A stretch of DNA of 58,549 nucleotides, the filler included, from Dugesia japonica (Eukaryota), in the NCBI GenBank assembly GCA_001938525.1. It is 4 parts of 4 records of this genome, joined end to end, with 100 filler letters (N's around TTAATTAATTAA, not from the genome) between each part and the next. Parts side by side here need not be neighbours in the genome. Positions count along the whole stretch, not along the records: positions 20,185 to 39,708 come from MQRL01609821.1; 3 more parts are not named here. One strand, 5' to 3'. Below the pieces are notes generated by a model. The model made no database searches, was not told the DNA's origin, and worked only from the letters and a program-made list of their open reading frames with translations. Positions 21,782-50,824 of this stretch are shown in pieces. The first letter of the stretch is position 1, and each line of letters begins with the position of its first letter. A program made the translations under genes and the position numbers.

Positions 21782-23060
21782 CTCTTTGAGGCATGGTGGA
21801 GTTAAGTGCCCAACTTTTTTGATGCGTCAATATACACAGAGGGACATTTTTGTACCACCTCGAAAAATTGCAAGTGCTACATGCATACAGGTTTAAACGT
21901 AATCCCACCTATTAAAAAAGCTAGTAAATTTACTGTAATGTGTCAAATTGGTATTTGTTGGAGTGTTCAACTTTAAACTAGTCATTACATGATCATCAAC
22001 CGCAGAAATTCACCGCATTTTTATGCGTTATTTGTTGTTAGTAAAGGTAAATTAATTTTTATTATATATTACTTCAATATAAGCTTATACAAAGTTAAAT
22101 ATTTAAAATAACTTAAATGTTTTATTTTTTTCATAAACCATGAAAGTACGGTGGGATTTTTTCTATCCAAACATGCAATAAAAATGTTTATTTATAAAAT
22201 TATATGTGCAAATGAATACATCATTTATTATCCTTTAGATTTAAAATGACGAGCAAAAATGAAGATGAAGTCCTTCTTGGAGAAATTCCTTCAGATCAAG
22301 AATCTATCTAATGGAAAAATAAGTCTTTGAGTATATGATTTAAGGACTTCCTATAGTTCTTATAGGATTTTATAATGATTTTATCACCAAGACATATAAA
22401 TGTAAATGAAAGAACTATAAAATGGATTAATAACGGATATTCAATTCAAGTAAGAGTATTTTCTTCCCATTTTGGTCGACGTCATTTCATCACGGATCTC
22501 ACAAGTCCATCTGCATATGATTTATGTTGTCAATTTATTACTAATGACATTTTTACCGCCATTGTATTCCAAAGAAATTTGTATGCAGAACAACAAGCCA
22601 ATAAATACACCTTAACTAATGCAAAACAGATTAGAAAATTTTTTGGAATCAATTTTATAATCGAAATCAGTAAACTCCTAAGTTATAGAGACCACTGGAG
22701 CACTGTGCCATATTTACAAAATGAATATATCTGTCGATTAATGAAGGCAAATCGTTTCGGATGACTTCTGAGTCATATTCATTTGAATGATAATATTTTG
22801 GTTCCAATCAGAGCAAGTCTTAGTTATGACAAACTCTAAAAGGTCCGTCCATTTTTGGATAAGATTCAAGAAAATTTCAAAAAAAATTTTAATTCAGGAC
22901 TGAGCCTGGCAATAGATGAATTTATGATTAAATTTAATTGGTGCAGCACACTAAAACAGTATCTTCCAAAAATACATATACAAAGAGGATATGGATGCTA
23001 GCAGATAAATCTGGTTATTGCTACAGATTTAATTTTATATAGGCAAAATTGGCAGTACGT
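21782..23060 (+). mobile_element. piggyBac 5' fragment, truncated transposase pseudogene
   Basis: ORF 22375-22764 (IVFQRNLYAEQ, KFFGIN, SYRDHWST, NRFG) continues as IHLNDN, YDKL*KVRPFLD, LAIDEFMIKF, LKQYLPK. TTAA-CTCTTTGAGGCAT at 21778 is a candidate 5' end. Confidence 0.8.
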
Positions 23061-25632: not shown

Positions 25633-25961
25633 AAATTTACTGGAACTTTTCTAAAATTGATAGAAATTTACTAGAACTTTTTTCTAATCGTTGAAAAATT
25701 ACACAAACTTTTAAAACATTGTTGAAAGTTTACATGAACTTTTTTCAAACTAGTCAAAATTTACATGAACTTTTCTAAAATCACAAAATCCTATGTAAAA
25801 GAGCGGGAAAATAATTCTAAAATTTACTAGAACTTTTTAAAATCATTGAAAATTTACATAAATTTTTTTAAAACTAGTCAAAATTTTCCATAAACTTTTT
25901 AATCACCATTGAAAATTTCAGAAACTTTTCTAAAGTTAGTTAAAAATTACATAAACTTTTC
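25633..25961. repeat. Minisatellite, about 31-bp unit AAAATTTACWWGAACTTTTYTAAAAT...
   Basis: About 9 degenerate copies, ending just before the Polinton left flank. Confidence 0.8.
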
Positions 25962-25976
25962 TGTAATAATGACTCT

Positions 25977-26178
25977 AGTAATGTATAAATAACCAACTCT
26001 TAGCACTACCATTTTTACGATTTTTTTTTCAGTTTTTCTATGAAAAATACCCTATTTTAGATAAAAAATGAAAAAAATTAATAATTCAACATAAAAATTT
26101 CCTATGAAAAAATCGAAAAATTCGTCATAAAAAATTCTCTATGAAAATTCGGGCATGAAAAATTCCACAAAGTGCTAT
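25977..26178 (+). repeat. Polinton left TIR
   Basis: Reverse complement of 38395-38722 apart from the internal repeat copy number. Confidence 0.93.
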
Positions 26179-26215
26179 CAAAAAATTCGACATAGAAAAT
26201 TCCACAAAGTGCTAT

Positions 26216-27173
26216 TGTTGAGATAGATGTCTTTGGGATTTCGCAAAGGCAAATCAACGATTTTTACGTGAGCTCTATTATTTATATTTTTAGAGAAACG
26301 AAATCAAAGTTTTTACTTATAAATATTATTATATTCGTATGCCTATATCTTAATATGTTTAATATATAGAATTATATATTTATAAATAGACTATATAGTC
26401 TGCTTATATTAAAGAAAACAAAGTTTTACTTTTTTTTAAAATTATTTATTACCAATTACACGTTGTGATTTTGTTCTCTGAGTCTGTTACCTTAGGTATT
26501 AGACTTNNNNNNNNNNNNNNNNNNNNNNNNNNNNNNNNNNNNNNNNNNNNNNNNNNNNNNNNNNNNNNNNNNNNNNNNNNNNNNNNNNNNNNNNNNNNNN
26601 NNNNNNNNNNNAATAAACTGAAAAATTATAAAATTATTTATAATATTTACTTAAAAATAAAAATTTTCCATAAAAATATTCCTACATGATTAATTTAAAA
26701 TCCAAAATACAATATTCACATAAAAACTAAAATCGATTTTATTATCGAATTTTTTTTAAATAAACAATCCAAGTTGATTATTGTCGACTTTATTATCAAA
26801 TTCTTGAAATAAAAAATCCAAGTTGATCGAAATATAATATTTACATTAATCAAAAATTTTTACAACATTTAATATTAAAATCACTAAAGAAATAAAAANN
26901 NNNNNNNNNNNNNNNNNNNNNNNNNNNNNNNNNNNNNNNNNNNNNNNNNNNNNNNNNNNNNNNNNNNNNNNNNNNNNNNNNNNNNNNNNNNNNNNNNGAA
27001 TCATAATGTTAGAATCATAAATTCATTCAAATTGATCATAATTGTTGTGATGTCTAGTGGCTGTTTTGCTCTCAAATTGACTGCATTCCGATTGCTATTG
27101 TTTGTTATGTTTTAATGTCTGCTTATTGTATTTGTGTATGCTTGTTATATTTCAATTTGTGTCTTCCCCAACA
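26216..27173. mobile_element. Solo LTR (gypsy-type) inserted in the Polinton left subterminal repeat array
   Basis: Termini TGTTG...CAACA; 4-bp TSD CTAT at 26212-26215 and 27174-27177; removing it restores the AATTCCACAAAGTGCTATAAAAA repeat. Contains two N gaps. Confidence 0.8.
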
Positions 27174-27368
27174 CTATAAAAAAAATTCCACAAAGTGCTC
27201 TAAAAAAAATCCAACAAGTGCTATAAAAAAATACCCATGAAAAATTTTCAATTTTGAAATCCAACAAGTGCTAAAAAAAATTAAAAAAAGTGGTTAAAAA
27301 TAAAATTCCTCTTTAATCATATTTATAAAAAGGTTGTAAGGTGTCTTCTTAAAGTTTATCTTTATAAA

Positions 27369-29706
27369 ATGGTAGTAGAAACATTCGATTGCAGGTATTG
27401 TGGAAAAAACATTAAAAAATTATGGGCTCTTAATACCCATATAAAAAATAAGCATGAGTTAAAAATTCCAACTCCATGTGAGAGGTGTCATGCAATTTTT
27501 AATTCGCCAGCGCATTATGAAAAAAATAAAATGTCATCATTATGTTGGAATCAAAGGGATATAAGTTTGAGATGTGAAATTTGTAAGGCAACATTTTCAA
27601 ATCAAGGTGCAGCAAAAACACATTACGCAAGTAAAAAACATAGAAGGGCATTACCAAATTTAGAATTATCTCAAGAGATCGTAGAACTTATGTCAGTTTT
27701 TGGAATTGATAAATATCGAGATTATAAAATAGAATATTTTAAAAATAGTAAAATCGAGTTTACAAAAGACATTTCTCAAGATGGTGTTACACAAATGATT
27801 TTTTACATAAATGATTTAAAAGAAATAACAATAAGATTTTTTAATTTAAGGGGTCAAATAGTTATTCGACTTTCTGCATTAGGACAATATAGCAAACTTG
27901 CAAATAGTATAGAGGTAAGAAGAGATTTTAGATCTTATGCAAAAAATACAAGAATAATAATGGCATCTCAAATTGTAACTTCTGTGGAAAGTTTAATTAA
28001 TGAAATAGATAGTTATATAACTGATAAGGATAGATGTGAAAGTGGATGGAGTATTGAATTTATAATAAATTTTACATTTACTCTTGAACCTTATCAATCA
28101 TTAGTGACAGCGAGCACATATGTCAAGTTGCCATTTGTTAAATGGGGAGCTGTTAACATTGAAAATAATGATGATAAATGTTTTCTTTATTCAGTTTTGG
28201 CACACAAACATATTTATGCAGATTCAACACGAGTAAGTCATTATTTATCACATATTAATGAATTTAATTTAAAATGTGTTAATTTTCCAGCAAAACTTCA
28301 TGATGTACAATTATTTGAAATATTAAACAATTGGAAAATTAATTTAATAGTGTTGAAAATTATAAATGATAGAAAAATATTACAGCTAATTCATATTTCC
28401 CATTATGATTGCAAATCGAAACAAGAAGAAAATAAATGTAATTTATTACTTTATAAAAACCATCATATTTTATGTAAAAATTTAAATGGTTTTATTTCTG
28501 ATGGAAATAAAAAATATTTATGTTTAAATTGTATGAATGCCTATCAAAGTGAATCATTATTTAATAGACATCAAAGACAATGTATTAATTACAAACCCTA
28601 GGAAATAAAATATGATCCAAAGGAATATTATTCATTTAACGATTATAATTTTATGATAAAAGTTCCATTTGTAGTTTATGCCCATTTTGAGGCTTACACC
28701 AATACGTTAACCAATAAACAAAAACCAATAGCTGTTGGACTTTATATTATTAGTGAACATCCAGAATTAATAAAAACTGATTAAATAAAATTTTTTGGTG
28801 AAAATGTGATAAATGAATTTATAAGATTTTTAAATCTTTTAAATAAAAAAATATATGAGATTCTTGATTTTAGATCAACAACGGAAATTCAACAACAACC
28901 CAGAATTTTAAAAGATGAGTGTTTTACTGAAAAAAAACACTTTGGCGAAATCTAGAAGAAGTTTACAGCTTTTTCAATGGTGAATTTATAGGTCCATCAC
29001 ATGAATTTTGTAATAAGAAATATAAAAATATTATGAAAAATTTCTTTGTACCACTTTATTTTCATAACGCGGGCGGCTATGATAATCATTTATTTTTTAA
29101 AAATTTATGAGAAAAATACCCAACACAAATTAAGGATATAATTCCACACAATGATGAAATATACATATCTTTTATATTTAGGAAAATTAGATTTTTAGAT
29201 TCATGCAAACTATGCCCAATGATATCAATTGAAGCACAGATTCTCTCTTTGTCGAAATCAGGGACCAAGAAAATTTGGACAAGTTGAAAACGCTATTAGG
29301 AAATGACCACTTTCAAATGAAAGATGAAATGCCTAATAGTATAATTATACAATGTAATTTTATAAGGTCAAAATGTTATGGAGTTTTATTTGTGACAGAA
29401 GATGGAAAGATAAAATTTAATCCAACACATAAAGGTTCAGCTAAAACCAACAATATGAAAATGAAAGAGTATGATAAAATTTTAAATGATCCAAATGTAA
29501 CAGTTTATGGAACGAATCATAGTATAAAATCAGAGGCTCATGAACTAGAAGTAGTTTCTCAAGATAAAATAGTAATGACCGCTTATGATGATAAAGTTTT
29601 AATTGAAATTAATGGAATTATAACATGACCACACGGTAATCAATTTTGGTGTGAAATTTGTCAAATGTGGCATTTTAGATTAGAACTTTTAAATGGAATT
29701 TTATAA
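27369..29706 (+). pseudogene. Protein-primed family B DNA polymerase (pPolB) with N-terminal zinc fingers; stops, frameshifts and a large internal deletion
   Basis: ZnFs CRYC..H..H and CEIC..HYASKKH; SGWS..YVKLP..AVNIENNDDKCFLYSVLA; after the TAG at 28599, VPFVVYAHFE (ExoI), FNGEFIGPSHEFCN (EndoVII-like remnant), FHNAGGYDNH (ExoII) and FLDS; then directly TDSLF (motif C remnant, 29236), KDE..IRSKCY..HKG and AYDDK..GIIT*PHG. Confidence 0.92.
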
Positions 29707-29709
29707 TGT

Positions 29710-30056
29710 TTAAACTTTTAGGTTTTTAATTAAATTTTCATAATTTGGATTTTCACTTTTGGATTTTAAAATTATTTCTTGAACTTCACGAATCATGGTT
29801 TTACTTGTAGAAATTTCTTCATCTGTTAAAATATTATCATTCAAGGCCTTTTGTTGAAATAGAAAAAGTTTACTTATTTACTCCATTTACTAAAAAATTT
29901 TCGATAGTGTTTTATTTTATCATTTATAAAATATAAGTCATTTTCAAAATCTTTAATTCTTAGATATGACAATTTACTTTTTAGGTCTTCAAGTGTATAA
30001 TTATTAATTTCATGTTGATAATTTTTTAAATCAGGATATAAGGATTCTTCTGCCAT
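29710..30056 (-). pseudogene. Conserved Polinton hypothetical protein (LYPxL...KALxDxxLTxEE type), apparently with a central deletion
   Basis: MAEESLYPDL...RIKDFE...KIKHYRKFFSKWSK* followed in another frame by ISKLFLFQQKALNDNILTDEEI...LKV*. Confidence 0.55.
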
Positions 30057-30074
30057 TTTTACAAGGGAAAATTT

Positions 30075-31189
30075 TTATAATTCATTTAATATTTTTTCCC
30101 TTTCATCCTTACAAAAATTAGGAACACTAATAAGGTTATTAATATAAATATTTGCTGGCAAAATTAAATGAAATTTTTTTAAGTATACACTTGTCATTAT
30201 ATCATCTTTTTCCAGATAACTAGTATAATTATTTCCCCCCTTTAAATTTATAGTGTTTATTTCCAATTTAAATTTTCCTTGTTTTTCAAACGCAAAATTT
30301 ACAATCTCACCAGAACCAGTAAAATTAATAATAATACTAAATTTATGTATTTTTGTATATCCGCCAAGAAAAACACATAATGGGCCAACGTCTGATTTAG
30401 GTTTAAAATAAAGTTTAAAAGGACTCGTAAGAAAAAAAAATAGTTTTTCATTAAGATATTCCCAACGACCACTTATTATTACTTTTTATAAGATTACATA
30501 TTCTGGGACGGTGGAATAATATGGAAATCTATTATTATTTTTATGGATAAAAAACATTCTAAAAATCACAAACGCGCTAAAACTATTTTTAAAAAAATCT
30601 GTTCTTCGAATATCCATCCACGGTAAATAATTATCAATTGATTCTTTTATTTTTTCTATTAGCCTAGGAGATTTGGTTGTTTTATATATTTCTAAATCTT
30701 CATTAATTTTTTTTATATATTCTGGGTTAAGAAGATTTTTTATTTTATTAAATTCCGCCAGCAAAGGAAATATAGGATCATTTTTTTCAAAATAGAAAAT
30801 TGGTTTTTTAAAAGATCAACTTCTTCTCTTTTTATAACCTGTTTTTTAAAATTTTCGGCATCATCTTTTATTTCGGAAATAAACTTCTAAACAAATTTTT
30901 TGAGAAATTTATAATTTATTGGATCAAGTTCATCTTCAGGTTCATTACGAATTTTTAAAGTGTTAAATTTATTTTCGTGGGTTTTAAATTTATTTTCGAG
31001 GAATTTTAAATTTACTGCATCAAGTTCGTGTTTAGGGGCATCAAAAATTTTTAAGGATTTAATACTATCACCAGATTCATTTACAAATCTTTTTTCATTA
31101 CTTGCATCTTGTATTCTTAGTTTACCAGAAATATGATTTATGATTTCTTTATCATTCATCGTTTGTAAGCTTTCTCCAAATATGTTCAT
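30075..31189 (-). pseudogene. Putative fibre/spike-like protein, probably one gene broken into ORFs 30887-31189, 30486-30764 and 30075-30266
   Basis: MNIFG start, FVNESGD, and two P..ELD(A/P)(V/I)N.KFL repeats resembling the P...DAxNxxY stalk repeats of trimeric fibres; same strand and contiguous. Confidence 0.45.
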
Positions 31190-31586
31190 TTATTTCAGAA
31201 ATAATATCATCAAAAGATTTTTTGGGAAAGCTATATAAAAAATAAATACAAAGTACTCCACAAATTCTTGTTTCAAAAGGTTGAACTTGAATTTCATTAA
31301 ATTTTTCAACATGCTTCTCAAGATCTTCATGAAAAGGTTTTAAACCAAAAGAGTCAAAATAGTATTTATTCTTCAGGGCAACCCAATGAGTTCCATTTTG
31401 ATTTGTATTTTGATAATTAAAAATATAATTCATATTATTTTTAAATTTATCTGGCAACTCATTTTTCATGTAAATTTCCAATGGTATTTTTAAAAAGTTT
31501 GCAATTGAATAAATATCGAAATTTGTAGTTGTTGTAATTCTAAATGTTTTTATAAAATCTAAAATCCCTATTTTAACATTGGACAT
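31152..31586 (-). CDS. Adenain-like cysteine maturation protease, intact ORF, 144 aa
   Basis: GTHWVAL (His), YFDSFGLKP (Asp), QVQPFETRICGVLCIYFL (oxyanion Gln and catalytic Cys). Confidence 0.92.
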   Translation of the reverse strand: MSNVKIGILDFIKTFRITTTTNFDIYSIANFLKIPLEIYMKNELPDKFKNNMNYIFNYQNTNQNGTHWVALKNKYYFDSFGLKPFHEDLEKHVEKFNEIQVQPFETRICGVLCIYFLYSFPKKSFDDIISEINEHIWRKLTNDE

Positions 31587-32258
31587 TTTCTTAAATGAAT
31601 TAATAATGACATTGTTTTAATAATGAATAGGTTTTAAATTTTCATCCACAACTTCAAATCTTAACTCATCAACATAACCAATAGATATTTTTGAGTAAAT
31701 AGGTTAAGATGGTCTTTCAATAATTTTAAATCCAAACCTTACACTAATTATTGGAAATGAATATAAAAAATAAGTTGGTTTATTATTTTTATAATTTTCC
31801 TTGATTAAATTAGAAGTAATGTTGATCATGTTTATATTATTACTAATGTTAACTTTCTCTTCGGAAAAATATTTTGTTCCAGGAATATACTCTTTCACCC
31901 CAAAACCTAAAAGTTTAAAAAAGAAAGATTTTTCATCAAAATTTAAAGTCTTATTTAAACCAGGCTTAGGAATAATTATTTCAAGCATAAATCTGGCGGT
32001 TGAGAGATCTGGAGTTATAATTATTCCTAGGTCGGTTAATTTCTCTGAAATTTGTTTAACCTCATAGGCTCCAGGATGAATTTTTTTATTTACACCTCCA
32101 AAAGTAAAATTACAATTTTCTTTTTGTATATTAAAAATAATATTATAGCAAGAAAAGTAAATTAAACCAAGTTCGTATTCTCCTGTTAATTCTAACGGAG
32201 GTTTTAAATTAATTTCTAAATTTGGACCTTTACCAGTAACTAAAAATTGATGAGACAT
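31587..32258 (-). pseudogene. Minor capsid (penton-like, single jelly-roll) protein with premature stops
   Basis: PPLELTGEYELGL..FSCYNIIFNI, PGAYEVKQI, INITSNLIKENY..LYSF..GFKIIERP*PIY..LRFEVVDENLKPI is the typical Polinton penton pattern. Confidence 0.85.
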
Positions 32259-33155
32259 TTATTTAAAATATTTTTTTTGATAGTCTTTATATTTTTCTTT
32301 TGTAATTAATTTCTTCGCTCTAATTTTTCACAGAGTGATTTAATTTCTTGGCTGGTATTTTAATACCCGGATTTCTTAGCTGAAATTAAAACTATTAATT
32401 TTTCAAATAAATCTATTTCTGCGCCTTGTCCTTGTTGTTGTAGCGGTTTTAATATTGGTATTTTTTTATATGAGGGCTTTTTTTAGGTGATGATCGTACT
32501 GATTTTGGTTTTACTTTTTTTTCAACATTTTATAATAATTACCATTCTTTGGATGTTTAATATTTAATTTGTTTAAATATATATTTGCATCTTCTGATTT
32601 AATAATATCAGTTTCTTTCCCTCCTAAAATTAATGTCATTACATTATTTGAATAGGGAATAAGTTTATCTGGAGATATATAAAAATATGGAATTGTATCC
32701 TTTTCAACTAAATATATTTTTTTATCATTAATTTTAATGGTTGGATACCTTTTTTCATTAATATTTTCATAAATAATTTCTGGTGTTGTTGGTGTTAAAT
32801 TATCATTATTAATTATAATTTTATCATCATTTATTGTGAATGGGAGTTTATCTTTAAATTCATCTTCTAATTTTGGTTCTAATTTTTTATCTAATATTGG
32901 TTGTACTGGTTGTTGTAATTTTATTTCTTGTGTTGGCGATTTTATTTCTTGTTTTGGTAATCCTGGTGTTAGTGGTTGTAATTGTTGTTGTACTGTTTGT
33001 TGTAATGTTGAAATTAATGGTTGTTGTTGAAAAGTAAATGATGATTGTAAATTTTTAGATTGAAGAACTTTACTGGTGAAATATTCATTATATTTTTCTT
33101 CAGCTGCAATTATTTCTTTTAATTCTTTGATTCTTCTTTCGATGTCGCTAGTCAT
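32259..33155 (-). pseudogene. Conserved Polinton virion/core-like protein (Q/P-rich; C-terminal L..L.....G...EI..L...L motif), frameshifted
   Basis: ORF 32511-33155 continues through frameshifts as QQQGQGAEIDLFEKLIVLISAKKSGY*NTSQEIKSLCEKL..KKLITKEKYKDYQKKYFK*, ending at a TAA adjacent to the penton ATG. Confidence 0.6.
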
Positions 33156-33159
33156 TTTA

Positions 33160-33598
33160 ATAAGGATTTAAATATATTCCTGTTCCATCATAAGGTCTTA
33201 AGAATATTCCCCCATCTTTTTTTTTTAATTCTTTCGATGGTTTTAAATTTTGATTTTTTAAATATTTATAAATTGCTTCACCCTGTTTTTCATTTATCTT
33301 TCTACTTCAACTTCTTTATTTAATTGATCAATTTCAAGTTGTGTTTTATGCGCCTCCCGGGAACTTGCACTGTGGATGCGATTCAACTAGCAATCCCGGC
33401 AGCACTCGCAGCTCCAGCAAGGATTCCTGGTATGGCGGCTAAGAAAAAAAAGCCACCTTGTTTTTTTTGATGTTTTTTAATTTTTTCTTTTGCTTTTTTA
33501 CCAATCCAATAATTTTTACCATCAATTTTAATAGATCTACTAAGATTTGAATTTACTAACTTAATTAATTCTTCTTCTTTTATATTTGCTTCGGGCAT
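33160..33598 (-). pseudogene. Adenovirus pX(mu)-like basic plus hydrophobic peptide precursor
   Basis: KKAKEKIKKHQKKQGG|FFFLAAIPGILAGAASAAGIAS resembles the adenovirus pX C-terminal GG|xLPxLIPxIAAAIGAxPGIAS; interrupted by TGA at 33383-33385. The 3' end is approximate. Confidence 0.65.
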
Positions 33599-33629
33599 TT
33601 TATTTAGCAAAAAGATCGGTTGTCACTTC

Positions 33630-34356
33630 ATTTGTTAAATGGTTTAAATAAAAATATGTATAGGATTCTTTCCAATGAAAATTTACTTCATAGTCATAAA
33701 CATCTTTTTCAGTAATATTTGAAAATTAATCACTATAAACACTGTCACGATCTTTTTTATTTAATCGAAAAAATATAAAACAATTTGTGTTATTTCTTAT
33801 TGAATTTTTATCAAGGTGAAAATATGTTTGTGAAATGTAAATTACATTACAATTTGAATGTCTTCCTCGAGTGAAATAACTTTTTTGAATTTCTTGATTC
33901 CTTTCATTTACAATATCATCAAAAATTACAAGATTTTTTTTTATTCTTTTTTAAACGATCACAAGGAATAATATCATTTGATTTATTACTTAGGATTATT
34001 TCTATTAACTGTAGTCTTTTTGTTACAAATTTCTTTTCAATGAAAAAATTTATAACTTCTATTGGTCTAGTACATGAATCTGGAACAATCGCTTGTTTCT
34101 CAAACATTAATATTATTTCTTGTTTTGTTAAACTATTTAAAAATCCATGATATAATAATTGTACTTCAAATTGAAAAATTGTAGTTGAGTAAAATATTAA
34201 ATTATTATTATCAAGAAAACCTGGGGTAAGTAACATTTAACTCAAGAGAACATTTTTCACACAACCAGAAGACATAATTATCAACAATCGAAAATTACTA
34301 GGAAAAAGTTAATTATTAAAAATTGTCTTATCTTTCTTCCAAACTAAATTACTCAT
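33630..34356 (-). pseudogene. A32-like (FtsK/HerA superfamily) DNA packaging ATPase
   Basis: ATG at 34356; LFPSNFRLLIIMSSGCVK (degenerate Walker A), NLVIFDD (Walker B), YFTRGRHSNCNVIYISQTYF, IRNN. Confidence 0.9.
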
Positions 34357-34362
34357 CCTTTT

Positions 34363-35614
34363 TTATAAAGAAGTTTTTTGTAACTCGTTCTCATAAAATC
34401 TTCCAAGAATTTTTTCATTATCGGTTGGATCGGGACTTTGATAAGTTGGTGGAATTGTTAGATAAATTTTTGTAACAATGTAAGTTTCTACAGACCATTT
34501 AAATTTATATTTTTTTTCAAATGTATTTTTTTTAATGAAAAGTATTTTTTTTAATTATAAATATTTTAACTTTATCTCCTATTTTAAATTTAGGTTTAAA
34601 GTTTTTAGGTCTCATATCTTTGGGTTCCTCATTAAAAACTTTGCCAGTTTCATACGCGAGTTTTGGAGTTGTTCTAATTGAAGAATGAATTGTGTTGTTG
34701 TAATCATCTACTATTTTTTATAGGAGGTCATTTGTGATTTCTTGATTCCCAACGGTAGTAAAATGTTTAAAAAGTTTGTTTTTAAATGTACGATTAAATC
34801 TTTCAATGACAACTGCCTTTCCTTGATTATAAGTAGAGTACATGTTGATACTTTTTTTTACACCAATCGGAAAATGTTGAATTGTAAAATTCCTTTCCAT
34901 TATCAACACAAAGATTATTTGGAGCTCGAATATTATCATTTAGAATTTTNTCAAATGCTTCAGTAATCACCGCGGCGGTTTTATTATCGCAAAGTTTTAC
35001 AAAGGCAAATCTTGTTTAAAGATCAATCACAGTTAGCATTACTTGCTTATTATGAAATGTTAAATCTGCTGACCAAGTTTCATCGGGTTCACTTACTGTT
35101 ACTTTTAATAATTGTTTTGGTTTTCTATAATTATGATGAAGCTCATCTGCCAGTTCTCCTCCTAAACTTTGGCCGATCATTATTTTACCCTTCATTGCTG
35201 TTTTTACAAGAAAGCCTTGAAATTTTTCTTCTGCTGTTGGATTTTCAATATTATTAATATCCTCTATTAAATGCACATCGGCTACGTGTCGATCTGTCAT
35301 ATCTTCTGAATTATAAACAATATCATGTTTCAGTGCCGCTGCATCAATTCGATTAATTGGTTCTTCTCCTGGTAATGGATTATTATTTTCATCAAGTCTA
35401 ATATCTAATCTAGTTCCTGAACCTGTGTAATTATGATGGAATAAATGTCGCTCGCCCGGATGTTTTTCCCAAGTAAATGGTTTTAAAACATTGCTAACAA
35501 GACTTGGTGATTGAAGATGTCCCCCGCCCTTACAAAGTTTCATGTGTCTGGCTTTATTTTTTTTAAGAGGGTTCTATGACATTTTTCAGATGTAAATTTT
35601 ATCGATTTAGTCAT
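34363..35614 (-). pseudogene. Fusion protein: small C2HC zinc finger, parvovirus VP1u-type phospholipase A2, retroviral-type (DDE) integrase
   Basis: PLA2 motifs HNYTGSGT, INRIDAAALKHDIVY and RHVAD run in one frame (35016-35543) into integrase ELADELHH..DETWSADL..LTVIDL*TRFAF..VDNGKEFYN, then after a frameshift IERFNRT..YNNTIHSSI..KFKIGDKV..FYENELQ. Confidence 0.9.
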
Positions 35615-35615
35615 T

Positions 35616-36852
35616 TTATCTATTTGAAAATTCAACACCTTTAACATTTTCAATCATTGCAATTTTATTATTAGCAAGTTTCATTTCAATGTGTTTTTCT
35701 TCAAGAATATACCAGTAAAGACTTCCGGTAAAATCTGGATCCTTTGTAATGTGAAGTGTAACATCAACATTATTTATATTTAATCTATCATCTTGAGCTG
35801 ATCAAAACAGAAAATTGGATAATCATCACCAAATTCTTGAAGAGATAATTGTGGTTCTGTGAAAAAGTCTTGACAACATTTTAAATAATTTAAATAGGGA
35901 GAAATCATTTCATTATTTTCCATATTAAATTTACATTCATTGATTAGATAGTAATTATTATTTAATTGAATTTGCACGCTTTTTAAATAATAATTTACAG
36001 TTGTATCTTTTGTATCAACTTTTGTGGTTTTTGTTTTTTTTTGAATAAATAAATTATTATTATTAAAAGAAATAGTTTCATTTTTTATAGCTATAAAAAT
36101 ATATCTTGGTTTGTACGCAAGCATACTTAATTTTAAAGAAGCATAATTTCCAGTGTTTAATATCGCCTTTCCTGTTATTCTATTTAAAAATCCAACTTTA
36201 ATTGGTTTATCTGTTGAAATTCTTTTGAAAAGCATTAATTCTATTTTAGGCGCTAATCTACATTCTGGAATGTGAAGCTCGAGAGTTAGCAATTTTAAAT
36301 TTGGTGTGCCCTCTCCTTTAAATAAAAGTTTATTATTAATTTGTCGATAGCAATTAAATTCAATCATTGTGTTATAAAGTACTCGGTTAAAATTTTTCAT
36401 GAATCCAAATAAATTTCTCAATGGAAAAGAACCTTCAAATTTTTTAGATGCATAAAATTTCTTTCTTCTATCTTCTTCAAGAATCCATCCTGATAATTCT
36501 CCATATATTTCTCTATGAGTAAAATTTTTTGTAGTAAAATTTAACATGGTTGATATTGTACCAGGATCGTTAATAGTTTCTACATCGGATGCTCCAAGTT
36601 TTAATCTCATAAATTTAAATAAAGATGGGAAAAAATTATTTTCTAGTATTGCAGTTTTTCCTTCAGTATATTCTAATTCTATTCTAAAGTATAACATCGC
36701 ATTACAAATATCTAATGAATTAGTTGATTGTAAAGATTGAAAAGTTATCTCCCCATCTTTATTAAATTTGGAATTGTACTAGATGATGGTGAAATTTTTA
36801 AAATGTCATTTTTTAACATTTCATTATTATCGAGATTTATTTTTCCATCCAT
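35616..36852 (-). pseudogene. Major capsid protein (double jelly-roll, hexon-like), frameshifted near both ends
   Basis: LENNFFPSLFKFMRLKLGASDVETINDPGTISTM, FPLRNLFGF..FNRVL, KPRYIFIA, QIQLNNNYY and YPIFCFD follow the Polinton MCP pattern; ATG 36852, stop 35616. Confidence 0.88.
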
Positions 36853-36949
36853 TTTCTTTAATAATTTTTTAACATATTTATAACATTTGCGGCTTTTACC
36901 GTAGGCTGGCTCGTGGGGTGGCTCGTTGTAACATCTCCCCATTTGATTT

Positions 36950-37225
36950 TCATATTATTATAGATAGAAAAAACATCATCATCATCATAATTTTTCGCAG
37001 GGCTTTTCGCGGGCTCATAAATTTTCTTGGGGTCATTAATTTCAAATCTCTATTAAATACATAAATCGTCCATTTTTTTTTTCTATATAATTTTGTTGTT
37101 TGTATTCTTTTATTATATGGAATATTAAACCTATTTAAATATGCTCTTATAGTTTTTTCACTTAATGTGTGAAATTTACAAAAATCTTTTACTGAATTAT
37201 TTAGAAAATCATAATTCCTTAACAT
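36950..37225 (-). CDS. Small putative HTH DNA-binding protein (Polinton accessory)
   Basis: SVKDFCKFHTLSEKTIRAYLNRFNIP has helix-turn-helix spacing; the C-terminus is probably frameshifted. Confidence 0.45.
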   Translation of the reverse strand: MLRNYDFLNNSVKDFCKFHTLSEKTIRAYLNRFNIPYNKRIQTTKLYRKKKWTIYVFNRDLKLMTPRKFMSPRKALRKIMMMMMFFLSIII

Positions 37226-37250
37226 TTTTTAAAAAAACATCAGGCATTTT

Positions 37251-37772
37251 TTAATGTATTCTTTTTACTTTAGCACTTTCTATACTTTTAATTTCTTTTG
37301 GTATTTTTAAATTTACATATTTATTAGTAGCTTCAGATTCTTTTATTTTTTTCATCGCGGCGTTACAAAGCATTTTAACATCAGCTGATTTTACATATGA
37401 TCTACCATTTTCATTTAATTTTGGTTTATATCTAACATTAAAAACATCATCATAGTCTATCTTACTTGGTTTTGTTTCTTCTTTTAATTTATTAAGCGCA
37501 ATGTTATGCTCATCTCGTTCTTTTTGTAAAATATTTTTTAATTCTTCTACTATTTTTAATAAATATTCTTTTTGTCCATTAATTAAATTAAGTGCGAGAC
37601 CTTTACAATATAAAGAAAATATAAAGGTTAATACTCCTTTAAATAATTTAAGATTTTCTTCTTCTAAATTCATTTCATCTACTTCTTTAAAAATTTGATT
37701 AAGATATAATAATTTTTCTTTTGCTGCTTCCGCTATAACATCACATTTTATATATCCTTCAATTTCACCCAA
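37251..37772 (-). CDS. Hypothetical coiled-coil protein (Polinton accessory)
   Basis: 173-aa open frame, helical and E/K/L-rich; start uncertain. Confidence 0.5.
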   Translation of the reverse strand: MGEIEGYIKCDVIAEAAKEKLLYLNQIFKEVDEMNLEEENLKLFKGVLTFIFSLYCKGLALNLINGQKEYLLKIVEELKNILQKERDEHNIALNKLKEETKPSKIDYDDVFNVRYKPKLNENGRSYVKSADVKMLCNAAMKKIKESEATNKYVNLKIPKEIKSIESAKVKRIH

Positions 37773-37860
37773 CCCGCCATCCTCATCAACACAGATTTTT
37801 TATTATATTAAAAACTGCGCGTAGACCTAGCTGCCCCTGTTCTTTTTTCGCTACCATTTT

Positions 37861-38118
37861 CTAAAGAAATAATTCAGCAATAAAATATTTTTCATTGTTG
37901 GGTAGAAAACCTGGTTTTAGTTTAGTTTTTTTCCAATACATTGAAAATATGAAAACTATTAGCGTAATGAAGTTTGGCTGAATTTGATTTTTAAATTTAA
38001 TATCACAAGCAGAACAATATAAATCTACATCTTCAGGTTTTGCACATTTGGATGCGATGTCATGACGAGCCAATTCCCATTTGTTTGAAAATGCGCGATT
38101 ACATTTTTTACATTCCAT
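37861..38118 (-). pseudogene. Zinc-finger protein (Polinton accessory), frameshifted
   Basis: CKKC..F....LARH....C, then CSACDIKFKNQ continuing in the shifted frame as SAKLHYANSFH. Confidence 0.65.
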
Positions 38119-38132
38119 TTTATAAATGATTT

Positions 38133-38378
38133 TTATAGGAATTCTAAAATCTCTTTTACCCCTCTATACTTTCTAGTTCTTCTTTGAAATTGAAAACCAA
38201 ACGCTTCATAAAGTATATTTTCTAACCAAACTTCTTTTTTTTCCCAGTTGTCATTTTCAAAGGAATAATTCACCAATAAAATATTTAACATGGTTTTTTC
38301 CAATATACGAATAACATGAAAACTAGTAATACGATTTTTTAATTTTTGTTGGTCAAAATCCCTTAATGAAAATTCCAT
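38133..38378 (-). CDS. Hypothetical 81-aa protein, first gene inside the right TIR
   Basis: Intact ATG ORF preceded by the CTATAAAAATTATTTATAAA cassette that is shared with the next gene. Confidence 0.5.
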   Translation of the reverse strand: MEFSLRDFDQQKLKNRITSFHVIRILEKTMLNILLVNYSFENDNWEKKEVWLENILYEAFGFQFQRRTRKYRGVKEILEFL

Positions 38379-38394
38379 TTTATAAATAATTTTT

Positions 38395-38722
38395 ATAGCA
38401 CTTTGTGGAATTTTTCATGCCCGATTTTTTATGCCCGAATTTTTCATTCCCGATTTTTCATTCCCGAATTTTCATAGAGAATTTTTTATGACGAATTTTT
38501 CGATTTTTTAATGTCCGATTTTCTTTGCCCGAATTTTTTATGCGCAATTTAAAATCGAAAATTTTTTATGACGAATTTTTCGATTTTTTCATAGGAAATT
38601 TTTATGTTGAATTATTAAATTTTTCATTTTTTATCTAAAATAGGGTATTTTTCATAAAAAAACTGAAAATTAAAAAAATCGTAAAAATGGTAGTGCTAAG
38701 AGGTGGTTATTTATACATTAAT
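38395..38722 (-). repeat. Polinton right TIR with internal 14-bp repeats
   Basis: Inverted match to 25977-26178, with extra ATGCCCGA(A)TTTTT units. Confidence 0.93.
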
Positions 38723-38952
38723 GACTCTAATACTGGCAATTGACTATATACAATCTACCAATTGTTCACTCAATCAATTATACTTTGATTGTACTATCAA
38801 TCAATCTAAATAATTCAGTCAATTATTCATATATTTTCAGCCTTAATATTATAAAATCCTTTGAAAATATAGGTTCATTCAGAATAATGTACATTATTCG
38901 CCTATTAATCATACTTAGTATAATATTTGCTAATATAGGGTTTAAGTCATAG

Positions 38953-39200
38953 TACACAACTCTCGCTATTATCAAGTCTTAACATACACAATACTCACTA
39001 TCAATAAGTATTAACATACACAATACTCCCTATTATCAAGTATTAACATACAAACAGTACAATATTCGCTTTCATCAAGTCTTAATACATAATACTCGCT
39101 ATCAACAGCTATTAACATATACAATTCTCACTATCATCAAGTATTAACATATCCAAATCTCACTGTCGTTATGTATTACCATACACAATATTCGTTATAA
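38953..39200. repeat. Minisatellite, about 32-bp unit TACACAATACTCGCTATCATCAAGTATTAACA
   Basis: About 7-8 degenerate copies. Confidence 0.8.
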
Positions 39201-39912
39201 TCATTTACCTATTGATTATTCAGTTAATGGCTTAGTCTATTCATCGCTTATTCTTATAGTCAGGTCTATAATCCACACTGAATATATACATTACAACCAA
39301 TAACTGGTTAATTGTTCACATATATTCAACTTAATATATACACATATGTAAACATAACATCTTTGTAAACATAACATCTTATCAATTAATTTACCCATTG
39401 AATATCTGCTTGTAACATTTAAATTTATCCAATCATTAAAAGTCTAACCAATTATTCACAAACCTATTATTAACGTTTCAAATTAATTAAATAATTAAAT
39501 CCTCAAATAGAAATTTTATTCAATCAAAGTAAAATAATTAATAAAAAATTTATGAAGTTTTAAAATTAACCAAACAGTACATTTACCAATAGTGAAAAGC
39601 TAGACCAACAAAGAGTAAGAAAATTAGTAAAGATTGAAGACCTGTGAAGAACGAGAAAACCATTGACAACTCAAGATCAGTGCACAGCTATCAGAGTTTT
39701 GATGTCTGNNNNNNNNNNNNNNNNNNNNNNNNNNNNNNNNNNNNNNNNNNNNTTAATTAATTAANNNNNNNNNNNNNNNNNNNNNNNNNNNNNNNNNNNN
39801 NNNNNNNNATATATTACAATTAAAAATAAAATGATTAATCATGCCGAAGAAAATTTCAAAGTTGTATTAATAATTATTGTAAAAAATGTTTGGTGCATTT
39901 TTAAAAGATCAA

Positions 39913-41583
39913 TCAATTTTTCTTGCTTTTTGAAGTGATGCAATTGTATATAACTAATTGCACAAACAATTCTACTATTTCCAACATTGACATAACCGAA
40001 AATCCTAAATACAATCCTAAAATTCCTCCGATATCTGATAAGAGATTTTCAATAGGATATGACAAACTTTCTTCTGTTATCTCAACAGAAAGTTGTTTGG
40101 GAATAAATTTAAGAACTGACACTAAAAGTAACATATCAATTTCATTTTGTGCTGCTGCTCTCAAAACATCAACAGACTTATTTTCAGCCAAAATATAAGG
40201 CACTACACTTTCAATAGATTCTGCAAAAAGTGGGATAAACCCCCAATTTTGCCGATCCATTCTAACTGTTGAAACTTCGAATTTGTAATTATTCTCTGTA
40301 CAACTTGGTAGACACATCTTTGAAAATTGTTCATTTTCCATTGATTTGAGTTGCTGTTGATGGCATGAATATCTTATTGCCAGATTTGAAAATAAATTAT
40401 TTTTTGTGATATTTTGTATTTTTTCTAATGAAATAAATGAATTATTAATCTTTGCTATTAATTCAGATGGAATCTCATGACAGAAAGGGGCTGAATCAGG
40501 AATTGCTGAAGAGCATAAGAGTAATTCCGAGCGACATCCACAATTTTGATAAATTACTTCGCTCTTTTTAGTTTCAGTGCATAGGTACCTAGAATAGGAA
40601 TATGTATTAAGTTCACTTAAACCATAGCCTCTAAGTATAATATCATTTGGATTATCAAAGCAAACATTATTACTGTTGTCTCGAATTATAGTTTCTTGGC
40701 TAAAAGAGATTTGTTTTGAAAGTCCTCTATATACATAATGACCACCGGATTTTAAATCAGGCATAGAATTAGGAGGATGTATGTAAACCATACCACCGAC
40801 GAGTAATTGTTGCTCTTCTAAAGATCTCACTGCCATTTCAAAACGGTCATTACCACCTACAGCTAATAAATTGAATAAAAACGCCGTATTATCAGAACCG
40901 TCCAAATAATTTACAGTACGTATAAGAGGTTTAAATGTAACACAAATGAATCCATCAAATGTCGGAGTCACTGCGAGATTATTTACAGTAATATTGTTTC
41001 CTTTGTGATTTAATTTTATAATTATATCATGTCTTCCTCTTAATCGTTTAATATTATATGTTTGTCGCATTATTGAATATCGTGCTAAAGGCGCTGTTGA
41101 AATATTTAAAACAACTTTATTCCAGATTTCATTGTAGCGATTAAACAGTTCAGTGAACGTTGTCCCATTAAATATTTGTGTAGTATCTGGAGAAATTGAA
41201 TTAGTAGGGTCAGATTCTTCATAGAAATATAATCTTTGATTCGGACAAGCTGTAATATCCGGCATGATTAATCTATTATCTGGTGTTACATAGAAGGAAG
41301 AATTTACTCCATAATCGAAATACCGAAAGATTAAAAAAATTAAATGTATAATTAATCCAATAAATGTAATTATCATTATTATGACCCAAATCCATCTTAC
41401 TACATTAGAACTTTCTGAAACCTTTACAAATCCATGCCCACTAGTATTCTTACAAAATGATTTTATCAATGCTTTTGAATCTTTATCTTCTTCATCTTCT
41501 TTTTCAATACCTTCTTGTTGGTAATCATCTGAACCTTTAGATCTTTCACTTTCAAAAGCGTTATTCTCAAATGAATTGTTCAT
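39913..41583 (-). CDS. DEG/ENaC (ASIC/FaNaC superfamily) amiloride-sensitive cation channel subunit, intronless, 556 aa
   Basis: FCKNTSGHGF (HG motif), TM1, MPDITAC, Cys-rich thumb (CGC, CLPSC), and LLSDIGGILGLYLGFSVMSMLEIVE (TM2 with GxS filter). Confidence 0.95.
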   Translation of the reverse strand: MNNSFENNAFESERSKGSDDYQQEGIEKEDEEDKDSKALIKSFCKNTSGHGFVKVSESSNVVRWIWVIIMIITFIGLIIHLIFLIFRYFDYGVNSSFYVTPDNRLIMPDITACPNQRLYFYEESDPTNSISPDTTQIFNGTTFTELFNRYNEIWNKVVLNISTAPLARYSIMRQTYNIKRLRGRHDIIIKLNHKGNNITVNNLAVTPTFDGFICVTFKPLIRTVNYLDGSDNTAFLFNLLAVGGNDRFEMAVRSLEEQQLLVGGMVYIHPPNSMPDLKSGGHYVYRGLSKQISFSQETIIRDNSNNVCFDNPNDIILRGYGLSELNTYSYSRYLCTETKKSEVIYQNCGCRSELLLCSSAIPDSAPFCHEIPSELIAKINNSFISLEKIQNITKNNLFSNLAIRYSCHQQQLKSMENEQFSKMCLPSCTENNYKFEVSTVRMDRQNWGFIPLFAESIESVVPYILAENKSVDVLRAAAQNEIDMLLLVSVLKFIPKQLSVEITEESLSYPIENLLSDIGGILGLYLGFSVMSMLEIVELFVQLVIYNCITSKSKKN

Positions 41584-41627
41584 TTCTTAATTATAAAATA
41601 CTAAACAACTCATTAAATATATACTTT

Positions 41628-46069: not shown

Positions 46070-49000
46070 CATGGATTTCAAATTGTTTGAAATGAGCCGA
46101 GAAAAAGAAAAGTTCAAGCTGTTTCAATCAAATAAGACCTTAACATGTGCAAATGGCTCACCGATTAAGGTAATTGGATATTCTTTTATAAATGTAACTA
46201 TAGTAAATAAAACTACTAGAATTAGAATGACTATTGTAGATAAATTGTTCCCAAAATTCATAATGGGAATAAAATATATCAAAAAGATGAATGTGAGTAT
46301 GTTTTGAAAAGCGGATTGAAATTTTTGTGCCTAGGTTGGAAATCTTTTTCTTTAAAAATGTAAATAAGGAAGATTAAATTTTTAGACAAAGACNNNNAAT
46401 TAGTTAAGAGATTAGCTTATATATTTATAATTTATTGTAGACCTTTTTATAAAATGACTACTTATTGTAAAATGCAAAATAAAATTTTATTTAAAAATTT
46501 AATTTATTGAATTATGGCAAAATTGTTTTAATTTAAAAGTTTAAATAACAAAATGAATATTTATTGAGTTATGTAAAAAATGTTTCAATTTAAAATTTTT
46601 TTAAAATGTCAAAAATGTTTTAGCTGGAAAATTTAATTTTAAATTTTAAATTAAGAAAAAGATTTCTAATTAAACAGAGTTCTAATTTTTTTGAATANAT
46701 AAATAATGATTTTATTTGTTTATGTTGCTGTCAATAAATCTTTTTTGGAATAAAGTTGTGAATTCAATACTTTGAGGAGTACTTCAAACTCGTCTAATAA
46801 TGAACTTCTCGATTTTACCAAAAATATACTGTTTAACTGTATATGAAATAATAGTACCTTTCATATCCAAAATAAAAGAGCTAACAGAAAACTAAAGAAC
46901 TCTGATTCAAGGGTCCAGATAATAGTGCGAGAAGTGTGAAGTAGGCTAAAATGTGTACAGTAAGAATTATATTAGACAATACAGTTACAATTTTGAGTAA
47001 AGAAGAAGTAACTGTTTTTAGGAGTGTAGATAGCAATATTTTTGTTTGAAGCACGTTTTATTTAGTCCTTGTAAAGATAAGTTAGCAAATATATGGGTTG
47101 TAGATGCGAATAGTGTGTGTTATGTTAGGGGCAGTCTTCCCGCTAAGCTGCGCGCACGCGCGCGCGCAGCTTGTTTTATGTCTCAGCGCAGTTAAATGTA
47201 TTCTGCGCTCAAGAATAATTCTTGTGATTTCTGGTGAACACCATTTCTTCTAATTGATAACATTTGTTCCTCGTGAATCAAAATATTTTTAGTCTTGAGT
47301 CAAGTCTATCTATAGGAATGTTAAAATTATCTTGGTTAAAGCCGTTTTTTGGAGGCGTGAGCCACGTGACTCCTGAACCCCACCCACTTTGACACATCCT
47401 GTCTGAGAATGAAATTTTCGTAAAAACATTTGCTCAGTAAGTTTTGCAGTCTGCTTATTGGTCTTTGTTCTGCACTCACTAGTCTACATGCTTTAGTGGG
47501 AACATTGGTTAGGGGAACTGGTTAAATCCTAATAGAAAATAATTAACTTAAAGCATAAAGATATTAAAATGTTTAAAAATACGAGATTAGGTTGTATTGA
47601 GACTTTAGGTAATACAGAAGATAATTTTGAAAATATTAATAGAATATATCAAGATACTGGAATATGAAATATTCAATGTATAATGGATAGATTTATAAAC
47701 AGACATTTGGCTGATATCGATAAAAATGCGAAAAATACTGTAATAAAGATAATAACGGGATTTAAAGATATATTTTGTAAAGATAGTTATGATATCGGAC
47801 ATTGTCTAATTTTAAAAAATGAAATAGATGTCATCGATCCTAAACAAATTGCTCAACCATTACAAAGAGCTCATCTTCATCTAGACAGTAAAATCAACGA
47901 TATAATCAAAGAGCTTGAGCAAAACGGAATAATACATGAAATTAAAAGTCCCCAATCTTTACCTATTTTGGCTGTTTAAAGGATATCTGGAGACATTAGA
48001 TTATGTATAGACTAAAGAAAATTAAACTCAATTACTGACAGACCTATTTATCTGATTTTAGATAATCAGCAGTTGTTAGATTTACTTATGGGATCAAGAT
48101 TTTTTAGTTCACTTGATTTATCTAGAGGTTATTACAATATAGAAAAAAGTGGCAAAAACAGAGAAAAAACAACTTTTGCAAAACATAAAGGTCAGTATGA
48201 ATTTAATCGCGTGTCGTTTGGACTGTGAGCATCACCAGAGACTTTTTAATGATTAATGCATTTAGTTCTCAGAGAAGAAAATTTTGATAAATGCTTAATA
48301 TATCTCTATAATATCTTGATTTTCGGGAAAAGCATAGAGAAACACAATAAAAGACTGAAAACGGTGTTAGAGGAAACACGGCCGTCGGGAGTTAAGTTAT
48401 CTCCTAAGAAATGCGTTTGTTGAAAACGTCAGTAAAATATTTGGATCACAAAATGTCAAGCAAAGGAGTGAAACTGATCCAGAAAAAATTAATGCGGTAA
48501 GCAATTGAAGTATTCCGAATACAAATGAAGAATTATCAAGTTTTTTAGAGTTTTGCAATTATTACAGAAGATTTATTTGGGGAAATGTCAAAATTGTCTA
48601 ACATTTAGAAAATTTGTTAAGAGATGCAAACATCACGGGAAACGAAAAACGATAGATTTGACATGGGAAGAATTTTATAAGGAATCTTTCGAAAGTTTGA
48701 AACATGCTCTCACCAGCGCACCAGTATAATTGTTCCGAAATACGAATGATATTTTTGTATTGGATACAGATCCTAGTCATTTTGCAATAGGAGCAGTTTT
48801 TAGTCAAATTCAAGATAACGAAGAAAAAATAATTTGCAATGGATCTAAGAAATATTTGAAGGCAGATAAATGTATCACCAGGAAAGAACCCATGGCGGCT
48901 CATTACTTTGTGAAGATATACAATCATTATTCATTGGGAAAGAAATTTGTTATTCGCACAAACTATAAAGGTTTAACATGGATGTTGAATTGGAAAAGAC

Positions 49001-49071
49001 CAAATACATCACAGTACTGCTCCTGGATTGATGAACTAAGTATGCATGATGGCTATTTCAAGTCAAGTTGA
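46070..49071 (+). mobile_element. Ty3/gypsy pol pseudogene (protease, RT, RNase H)
   Basis: LTCANGSPIKVIG..FIMG (protease C-half); IRLCID*RKLN, FSSLDLSRGYY, YEFNRVSFGL and CLIYLYNILIFG (RT); FVLDTDPSHFAIGAVFSQ (RNase H). Confidence 0.9.
47132..47507. mobile_element. hAT MITE, 376 bp, nested in the gypsy remnant
   Basis: TIR CAGTCTTCCCGCTAAG / CTTTAGTGGGAACATTG; perfect 8-bp TSD GTTAGGGG at 47124-47131 and 47508-47515. Confidence 0.88.
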
Positions 49072-49562: not shown

Positions 49563-50824
49563 TTAGAGATTTTTAGAAAATGTAGTTTTCTTGATTGAAT
49601 TGTTTAAGTTTGTAATTTTTTTTGGAAGAACTGCAGAAATTTTTATTTTCTGATTTTTATTAATGTCTGCTTTTGAAGGTAACTTAATTTTTTCAAAGAA
49701 TTTTACTTCTTGATCTTTATCATTTTTGTCAACNNNNNNNNNNNNNNNNNNNNNNNNNNNNNNNNNNNNNNNNNNNNNNNNNNNNNNNNNNNNNNNNNNN
49801 NNNNNNNNNNNNNNNNNNNNNNNNNNNNNNNNNNNNNNNNNNNNNNNNNNNNNNNNNNNNNNNNCATCGTCATTGTCATCGTCGTCGTCGTCATCATCAC
49901 TATTATCCTCGTCTTCGTCGTCATCATCATCGTCGTCGTCTTCATTGTCATGATTATTGCTATCAATATTTTCGCTTTCATCATTACCGCTTTCTTTTTC
50001 TTCTTCATCATCATCATTATTGGTTTCCTCTTCATTATCATTTTCTTCGTTATCTTCATCATCATTATCATCAACTTCACATTCATCATTTTTATCAATG
50101 ATTTCCTTGATATTTGTTGCATTATTTTCATTTTTTTCATTTCCATCTATTGATTGAAGAACAGAATGTGACTTAGTTTTGTCATCATCATCTTCATCGT
50201 CATTATCAGAATCATTTTCACTACTTTTGTCGTAACTTTCATCTTCATCTTCTTCATTCTCATCATCTGTTTTATTACTTTCACTGTCTTCCTCATCAGT
50301 TTCTTCATTATCATTATTTTCATTTAATTCTTGTATAATCTTTTTTTTAGAAGTTATATCGTTTTTCTTTAGTTTTTCTGTAACTAAGGTATTATTGTTT
50401 GTGTTATTACATTTGTAAGATCTAGCTGTCGTTGTAGATGAATTACTATAATCTTTTGCATTTGAAAATGTACTTGAAATTTTTGATGATTTTAATAAAG
50501 ATAATTTTGATTCATCATTATTAGAAAATAACGAACATTCAGTATTATCATTATTGCTATTATTTTCATCATTACTACTATCATTGTTTTCATTATTTTC
50601 ATTGTAAGTAGTTTCTGAATACTTGGAATGCATTTCATTTGACAAGGAACTTAATCTTAAAGAATTCTTTGTGAAATATAAATCATTATTTGATAAATCA
50701 GATTCTTTGCCAAATTCTGAGATTGAATAATTATAAATTTGTGACTCGGACCTATCGACAGTATGGGTTTCAGAATTATTAAGATTTATGCGTAATTCTG
50801 GTTTATCACACAGCTTTTGAATTA
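49563..50824 (-). CDS. Probable terminal exon of a host gene encoding a D/E/N-rich disordered region with a basic tail
   Basis: The frame of ORF 49563-50645 stays open upstream to an ATTTAG acceptor at about 50825 (IQKLCDKPELRINL...); it spans an N gap. Confidence 0.55.

Follow-up and report, generated by a model that had tools for sequence, protein, structure and literature searches.

Introduction

In Polintons, also known as Mavericks or adintoviruses (names treated as synonyms in the available part of 10.64898/2026.06.19.733378), a protein-primed, B-family DNA polymerase (pPolB) copies the linear genome from the protein-primed ends of its terminal inverted repeats (TIRs), an A32-type ATPase packages the DNA, the major capsid protein (MCP) and the penton form the capsid, a protease matures the core proteins, and insertion of the genome by an rve integrase leaves a 6-bp target-site duplication (TSD), as set out in excerpts of PMC4028283 and PMC11161782. 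A phospholipase is common in group 2 of these elements (10.64898/2026.06.19.733378, same part), and Polinton lipases have been proposed, in sections of PMC4642659 and PMC8502044, to be packed in the virion and to aid entry. Furthermore, planarian Polintons are known piRNA targets (PMC8532177, excerpt). Here we describe a Polinton copy at positions 25977-38722 of a 58,549-nucleotide stretch of the planarian Dugesia japonica genome (assembly GCA_001938525.1), hereafter the window, in which a phospholipase A2 (PLA2) and the integrase share one gene.

The element is a Polinton/Maverick by its hallmarks, which are TIRs, a 6-bp TSD, pPolB, an rve integrase, a double jelly-roll (DJR) MCP, an ATPase and a protease. 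It has all of these in common with described Polintoviricetes (Repbase elements; PMC4028283), together with an AG/AGT-type left end, the A32 type of its ATPase, the cysteine type of its protease, a putative penton and its size, and differs from them in being pseudogenised; the Repbase families were compared by names and sizes only. Likewise, it resembles alpha adintoviruses of the Mayetiola type (PMC8502044, PMC11071296) and Sf Mavericks (PMC5803895), as described in the available portions of these papers, in its parvovirus-type PLA2, pX-like segment, zinc-finger accessory open reading frames (ORFs) and putatively OTU-type pPolB, and the pPolB homologs of the window copy carry an Endo VII insert like that of Sf Maverick PolB (PMC5803895). 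However, in those elements PLA2 has a gene of its own with pX at the end (PLA2X; PMC8502044) and the integrase ends in a chromodomain (PMC11071296), whereas in the window PLA2 is fused to rve, pX is separate and the integrase has no chromodomain. Because the PLA2X and integrase chromodomain traits both fail, we file the element as a Polinton variant and not as a strict alpha adintovirus.

Using an MCP alignment we fetched 17 loci from metagenome_contigs (L001-L017). Four of these contigs (L001, L002, L003 and L007) resemble the element in their MCP (27-46%) and in a run of ATPase, core-like, penton and protease genes, and differ in gene order and strand, MCP and the other virion genes lying on opposite strands in L002 and L003. 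The PLA2-integrase fusion is shared with L001, L002 and the clusters in Atlas that hold both PLA2 and rve. Single-protein locus scans of metagenome_contigs and viral_contigs returned no relatives, nor did alignment scans of viral_contigs, and the element had no match in phage records or Rfam. An earlier note on this DNA had proposed a divergent lineage, which agrees with the best MCP matches being unnamed proteins at 38-52% identity, but close relatives with the same genes do occur in the metagenome contigs, one of them with the same order of MCP followed by PLA2-integrase.

PLA2 and integrase domains share one reading frame

The fusion gene lies at 34363-35543 on the minus strand, and its PLA2 (PF08398, E <1e-5) and rve (PF00665, E 3e-7) domains share one frame starting at 35543, which bears out the PLA2-integrase gene named in the earlier note. 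Its integrase part is broken by two stops and by two frame changes and also includes one N. Intact fused homologs run collinear with the gene as far as its final codon, at 34363, where homologs without a chromodomain end. There was no match to the chromodomain family PF00385 in the fusion gene, and a chromodomain is also absent from the end of six of the seven full-length fused homologs. In L001, as in the window, the fusion comes after the MCP and shares its strand. In L002 the fusion is a single 441-aa ORF, and the window gene is 44-47% identical to these two. The PLA2-integrase ORFs of L002 (5188-6513) and L001 (1562-1909) open with a small Cys/His zinc-finger-like segment and Gly-Gly, followed by PLA2, and several other PLA2 homologs begin with DUF5679.

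The PLA2-integrase fusion is widespread and visible in automatic annotations. We examined the best 150 of 579 PLA2 homolog clusters at E ≤0.001, and an integrase was detected by profile downstream in the same protein in 33, with a further 12 showing the integrase start motif before the protein ends. Of the 117 clusters without a profile match, 55 stop no more than 75 residues from the active site of PLA2, and the His-Asp motif is missing from 14; because so many end early or lack this motif, 33 of 150 is a lower bound. A crude pattern for a pX tail matched none of the 150 clusters. Likewise, Pfam identified both PLA2 and integrase in 15 of 44 selected proteins, and the Atlas clusters holding PLA2 and rve comprise 184, 111 and 72 proteins, with the 111- and 72-member clusters mostly adding a chromodomain (62% and 90% Chromo in two clusters).

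The PLA2 His/Tyr and the first Asp of the integrase do not vary across 26 aligned fused proteins, in which two glycines of the hinge between the domains reach a conservation of at least 90%. A model of a natural fused homolog (pLDDT 77, pTM 0.50) displayed a confident helical PLA2, a low-confidence hinge at residues 132-136 and a confident integrase, and the integrase half matched the intasome of prototype foamy virus (PFV) in Foldseek (E 1.5e-15), and the profile weakly reached the VP1 PLA2 of adeno-associated virus (E 0.015). The family therefore shares the rve fold with PFV and other retroviral integrases, but here the partner is PLA2 and not reverse transcriptase, and the genome is DNA replicated by pPolB; the zinc-binding N-terminal domain of PFV-type integrases was not detected in the window family.

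A tree of the PLA2 domain was built from 49 sequences (27 fused and 22 others with a long tail), omitting those with short tails or no His-Asp motif, and P0102. It had 12 label changes compared with 16.3 in shuffles (13 of 500 shuffles were as low). As the tree is poorly resolved and many of its other sequences are cut or decayed fusions, it is uninformative on the number of fusion origins. Literature searches, and term searches of PMC3671162, PMC5803895, PMC11071296, PMC11131425, PMC4642659, 10.64898/2026.06.19.733378 and 10.64898/2026.10.13.758929, found no description of a PLA2-integrase fusion, although subscription papers, figures, supplements or Repbase Reports may hold one.

Termini, target site and an insertion in the left repeat

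The copy occupies 12,746 bases between two copies of GACTCT, at 25971-25976 and 38723-38728. The left TIR (25977-26215, plus strand) is well conserved over its outer ~165 bp, then gives way to sub-repeats and resumes at 27174-27290 past an insertion, while the right TIR (38385-38722, minus strand) has internal 14/29-bp sub-repeats. The outer arms are identical at 155 of 160 positions and run on inward as short degenerate sub-repeats, in the left arm on both sides of the insertion, and the window contains exactly two copies of the terminal 18-mer, in inverted orientation, with 0.01 copies expected by chance. The terminal motif of the class is 5'-AG or (AGT)n (PMC8097293, in part); the left end starts AGT, the right end deviates at the second base, and the full (AGT)2 is found at neither. 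An 11-bp target duplication was also considered and rejected, as the additional matching bases overlap by chance and the pairing of the TIRs fixes the ends.

In four of four public sequencing runs of the same organism we found an empty-site joint from 25966 to 38719, which skips 12,752 bp, supported by 1, 4 and 2 contigs in three runs and by 14 reads from 9 starts in the fourth. Since this joint omits exactly the element and one hexamer, it confirms the 6-bp duplication. Both flanks are high-copy repeats, with a summed depth of 1e5-7e5 in two DNA runs versus ~80-31,000 inside the element, so that the empty form is probably contributed by the flanking repeat at other sites. The joint was therefore rejected as proof of an insertion polymorphism, and PCR across the empty site, which the earlier note had suggested, would be uninformative because other copies of this host repeat already yield the empty sequence. 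The insertion target, a high-copy host repeat, has 31-bp and 32-bp tandem units on either side (25633-25960 and 38944-39203).

The insertion at 26216-27173 has TG..CA ends, a 4-bp duplication and two N gaps of 105 and 99 bases. We take such ends and duplication to be traits of elements with long terminal repeats (LTRs), and, because the two gaps lie within it, the insertion may represent either a solo LTR or a longer element in collapsed form, so that 26216-27173 gives only its apparent length. A Ginger-type DNA transposon, judged by what we assume to be the traits of that family, was rejected in the absence of long inverted ends.

These results uphold the earlier note in its claims of TIRs, a perfect 6-bp TSD and a fully delimited, endogenous, capsid-encoding Polinton/Maverick. 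Its AG 5' terminus is present at the left end but not at the right, where the second base differs, and its solo LTR goes further than the gapped sequence allows.

Gene content and decay

Remnants of every Polinton core gene are present and the protease alone is unbroken, with ~20 lesions in all, comprising stops, frameshifts and a deletion of ~460 codons in pPolB. Neighbouring genes in the metagenome loci reveal where each gene of the window copy is interrupted. The copy is a fossil that decayed neutrally after insertion and is unable to replicate or form particles alone, and it lacks the uninterrupted core ORFs by which Barreat and Katzourakis (2021) recognise an intact, potentially active Maverick.

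The pPolB pseudogene (27369-29706, plus strand) retains N-terminal C2H2 zinc fingers, an OTU-like Cys motif, an exonuclease with an Endo VII-type insert region and the C-terminal end. It is 24-44% identical over three blocks to five full-length pPolB-type proteins, four of which have an Endo VII domain match, and it matches PF03175 (E 0.004). By sequence, the OTU-like Cys motif aligns with these homologs at the expected N-terminal position (domain order from the available part of PMC11161782). The alignment skips ~450-470 residues between 29203 and 29236, so that motifs A and B are gone and the palm is largely deleted, and there are four in-frame stops and one frame change. The last stop of pPolB (29704-29706) converges on a minus-strand stop at 29710, and all remaining genes are on the minus strand.

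The DJR MCP gene (35616-36852) has two frame changes, near 36760 and 35800, and matches PF21738 (E 4e-12); its closest matches are nine unnamed proteins at 38-52% identity, with 48-49% identity to P0001/P0002. Next to the fusion gene, the A32-type packaging ATPase pseudogene (33600-34356) contains stops, a frame change and a degenerate Walker A motif, matches PF04665 (E 1e-6) and is 43-53% identical to its relatives. The pX-like core protein gene (33175-33598) is truncated after 71 codons and is 24-41% identical to ORFs of L002, L007 and L011. It has no Pfam match, and we name it pX-like from what we take to be the adenovirus motif; its protein has a Gly-Gly followed by a hydrophobic Ala/Gly-rich segment in four of four aligned sequences. 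The broken core-like gene (32310-33155), which sits between ATPase and penton in relatives, is 31-37% identical to the ORFs that take this place in L002 and L007. In L015 (1560-3146) the ATPase extends as one 528-aa ORF up to the penton, which is possibly a second fusion or a read-through, and in the other loci the core-like gene is separate.

The putative penton (minor capsid) gene (31600-32258) has a stop after 184 codons, relatives being 253-263 aa long, and is 27-37% identical to MCP-adjacent genes in 6 of the 17 metagenome loci. Its Atlas scores of 0.95-0.96 have a low recognition value, one cluster being 18% Adeno_Penton_B, and a single-sequence fold (pLDDT 32) did not recover the single jelly-roll, so the assignment draws on Atlas and synteny. 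PDB sequences gave no match for the penton or for the MCP profile. The adenain-like cysteine protease (31152-31586, 144 aa) matches PF00770 weakly (E 0.018), is 33-36% identical to its relatives and shares the catalytic residues H67, D78, Q102 and C109 with the L003 and L007 proteins (three of three aligned sequences).

A possible fibre-like gene remnant (30740-31189) aligns weakly, through one motif (E 0.014), to a stretch of P0043 that matches phage tail-fibre PHROGs, with no direct PHROG tail match of its own. Accessory ORF remnants at 29710-30815 had no homologs by Pfam, PHROG or among the ORFs of the 17 metagenome loci. Further accessory ORFs at 36858-38163 comprise an HTH-like (36950-37228), a helical (37251-37799) and a C2H2 zinc-finger ORF (37861-38163), whose Pfam and PHROG matches are weak except for zf-C2H2 (E 4e-5). 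The earlier note had described pPolB converging on a single minus-strand block, with stops at 29706 and 29710, and had given the order of the genes in it, both of which we recovered. Its full virion module is correct as a gene set, but all core genes save the protease are broken, and its fibre-like gene is left with the single motif.

Copy number and size

In three contig runs we found 2,911, 34,284 and 35,054 records matching the element and its flanks, mostly 90-99% alike, with depth in 30 of 30 bins; this summed contig depth is not a copy number. The element is one of many copies of a multicopy Polinton family. Without the insertion the copy is 11.8 kb, and with the ~1.35-1.4 kb missing from pPolB its original length comes to ~13 kb. 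Polintons with MCP, penton, ATPase and protease are catalogued at 10,272, 11,524, 12,608, 13,369, 13,486 and 13,692 bp in Table S1 of Krupovic 2014 (PMC4028283), which also has four planarian Repbase elements of 11.6-15.9 kb, a size that, like the base composition, would fit a planarian host, and intact vertebrate Mavericks range from 12,723 bp upward (PMC8097293, in part). We therefore rejected the description of the element as unusually compact, and its place at the small end for Polintons, proposed in the earlier note, does not distinguish it from full-module elements of 10.3-13.7 kb.

Discussion

We consider it probable that this locus is a fossil of a multicopy Polinton family lodged in a host repeat, and that its ancestor, when active, likely formed particles and likely carried the integrase in them as part of a PLA2-integrase polyprotein. 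If PLA2 is a virion protein, we infer, the integrase fused to it would be packaged too. The fusion would be directed to the virion core by its PLA2 half and cut at the Gly-rich hinge by the viral protease, PLA2 would aid escape from the endosome and the freed integrase would integrate the incoming genome. Once inserted, the present copy decayed neutrally and received an LTR-type element in its left TIR. Cleavage is suggested by the motif K..G(x)G, which 25 of 27 fused proteins have in their hinge against 1.2 expected (in a shuffle control that ignores relatedness), and by the Gly-Gly ahead of the hydrophobic segment in all four pX-like proteins. A stronger proposal, that the copy belongs to a large undescribed Polinton branch in which entry phospholipase and integrase form one virion polyprotein that the viral protease cuts at a Lys-x-Gly-x-Gly hinge, is one we hold tentatively and with some doubt. 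If it is true, these DNA viruses would deliver a ready-made integrase with the genome, like retroviruses, and infection would begin with integration as a programmed step and not as a side route; delivery as a protease-processed virion polyprotein would then be a further likeness to PFV.

Several points weigh against this reading. Among 71 proteins in which no integrase was detected, 50 likewise have the motif K..G(x)G after PLA2, so that it may only mark the end of the PLA2 fold, and it is at odds with what we take to be the adenain consensus, with its hydrophobic P4. None of the contigs listed spans the entire element. Furthermore, the RNA evidence comes from a single oligo-dT library, a quarter of it read, in which depth was ≤1.2 in bins inside the element, and the particles and the cleavage are predicted ones.

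The same decayed Polinton could instead have encoded a fusion that was never cleaved and an integrase that was no virion component, with PLA2 acting from the N terminus to target the protein or bind a membrane (for example, at the nuclear envelope) in place of the lost chromodomain, or merely coupling expression. The fused homologs that end without a chromodomain and the lack of specificity of the hinge motif for fused proteins both fit this alternative, but we judge it unlikely, as PLA2, rve and Chromo occur jointly in two large Atlas clusters, which argues against simple replacement of the chromodomain, the PLA2 catalytic residues are invariant, and the gene lies in the late block adjoining the MCP. 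It is less likely still that spread took place inside cells alone, the family being a self-synthesising transposon with capsid genes as passengers and no need of particles. A Maverick-Polinton virion has never been observed, according to the available part of 10.64898/2026.06.19.733378, and the scans of viral_contigs returned no relative, yet the MCP, penton, protease and ATPase genes of relatives have stayed intact at 27-53% identity, which indicates selection on virion genes, and purifying selection on such genes is reported for vertebrate Mavericks (PMC8097293, in part).

An assembly chimera, in which two different copies were joined across the gaps in the LTR-like insertion, would account for the locus in another way. 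The two N gaps within the element, its multicopy family, the repeat flanks and the duplications beside other gaps in the window all leave room for such a join, but an identical hexamer stands at both ends, the flanks join exactly into a sequence present in four of four runs, and 26998-38722 is free of gaps and contains only a single N, so that we regard a chimera as very improbable.

Taken alone, the locus adds another fossil to a common class and says little, and its value lies in drawing attention to the fusion. The conserved joining of a presumed virion enzyme to an integrase, in hundreds of public sequences, gives the testable prediction that the integrase travels in the particle. In addition, the published hallmarks of adintoviruses, namely PLA2X and an integrase chromodomain, miss a large group.

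Other features of the window

Exact duplications of 300 and 74 bases lie beside N gaps (10183-10979 and 10600-11207), and gaps with a TTAATTAATTAA spacer occur at 10171, 20129 and 39753; both look like assembly joins. A long Asp/Glu/Asn/Ser-rich ORF without a Pfam match (49563-50843, minus strand) crosses an N gap, and another ORF without a Pfam match (53356-53964) is presumably Tc1/mariner-like. Remnants of a DDE_Tnp_1_7 transposase (22366-22764, E 9e-11) and of a retrotransposon RNase H (48730-49071, E 2e-14) were also detected. Finally, ~1.2 kb from the element along the window there is an intronless ORF of ~555 aa for a DEG/ENaC (ASC family) channel, which points to an animal host (39913-41586, minus strand; PF00858, E 2e-51), with 58% identity to its closest protein.

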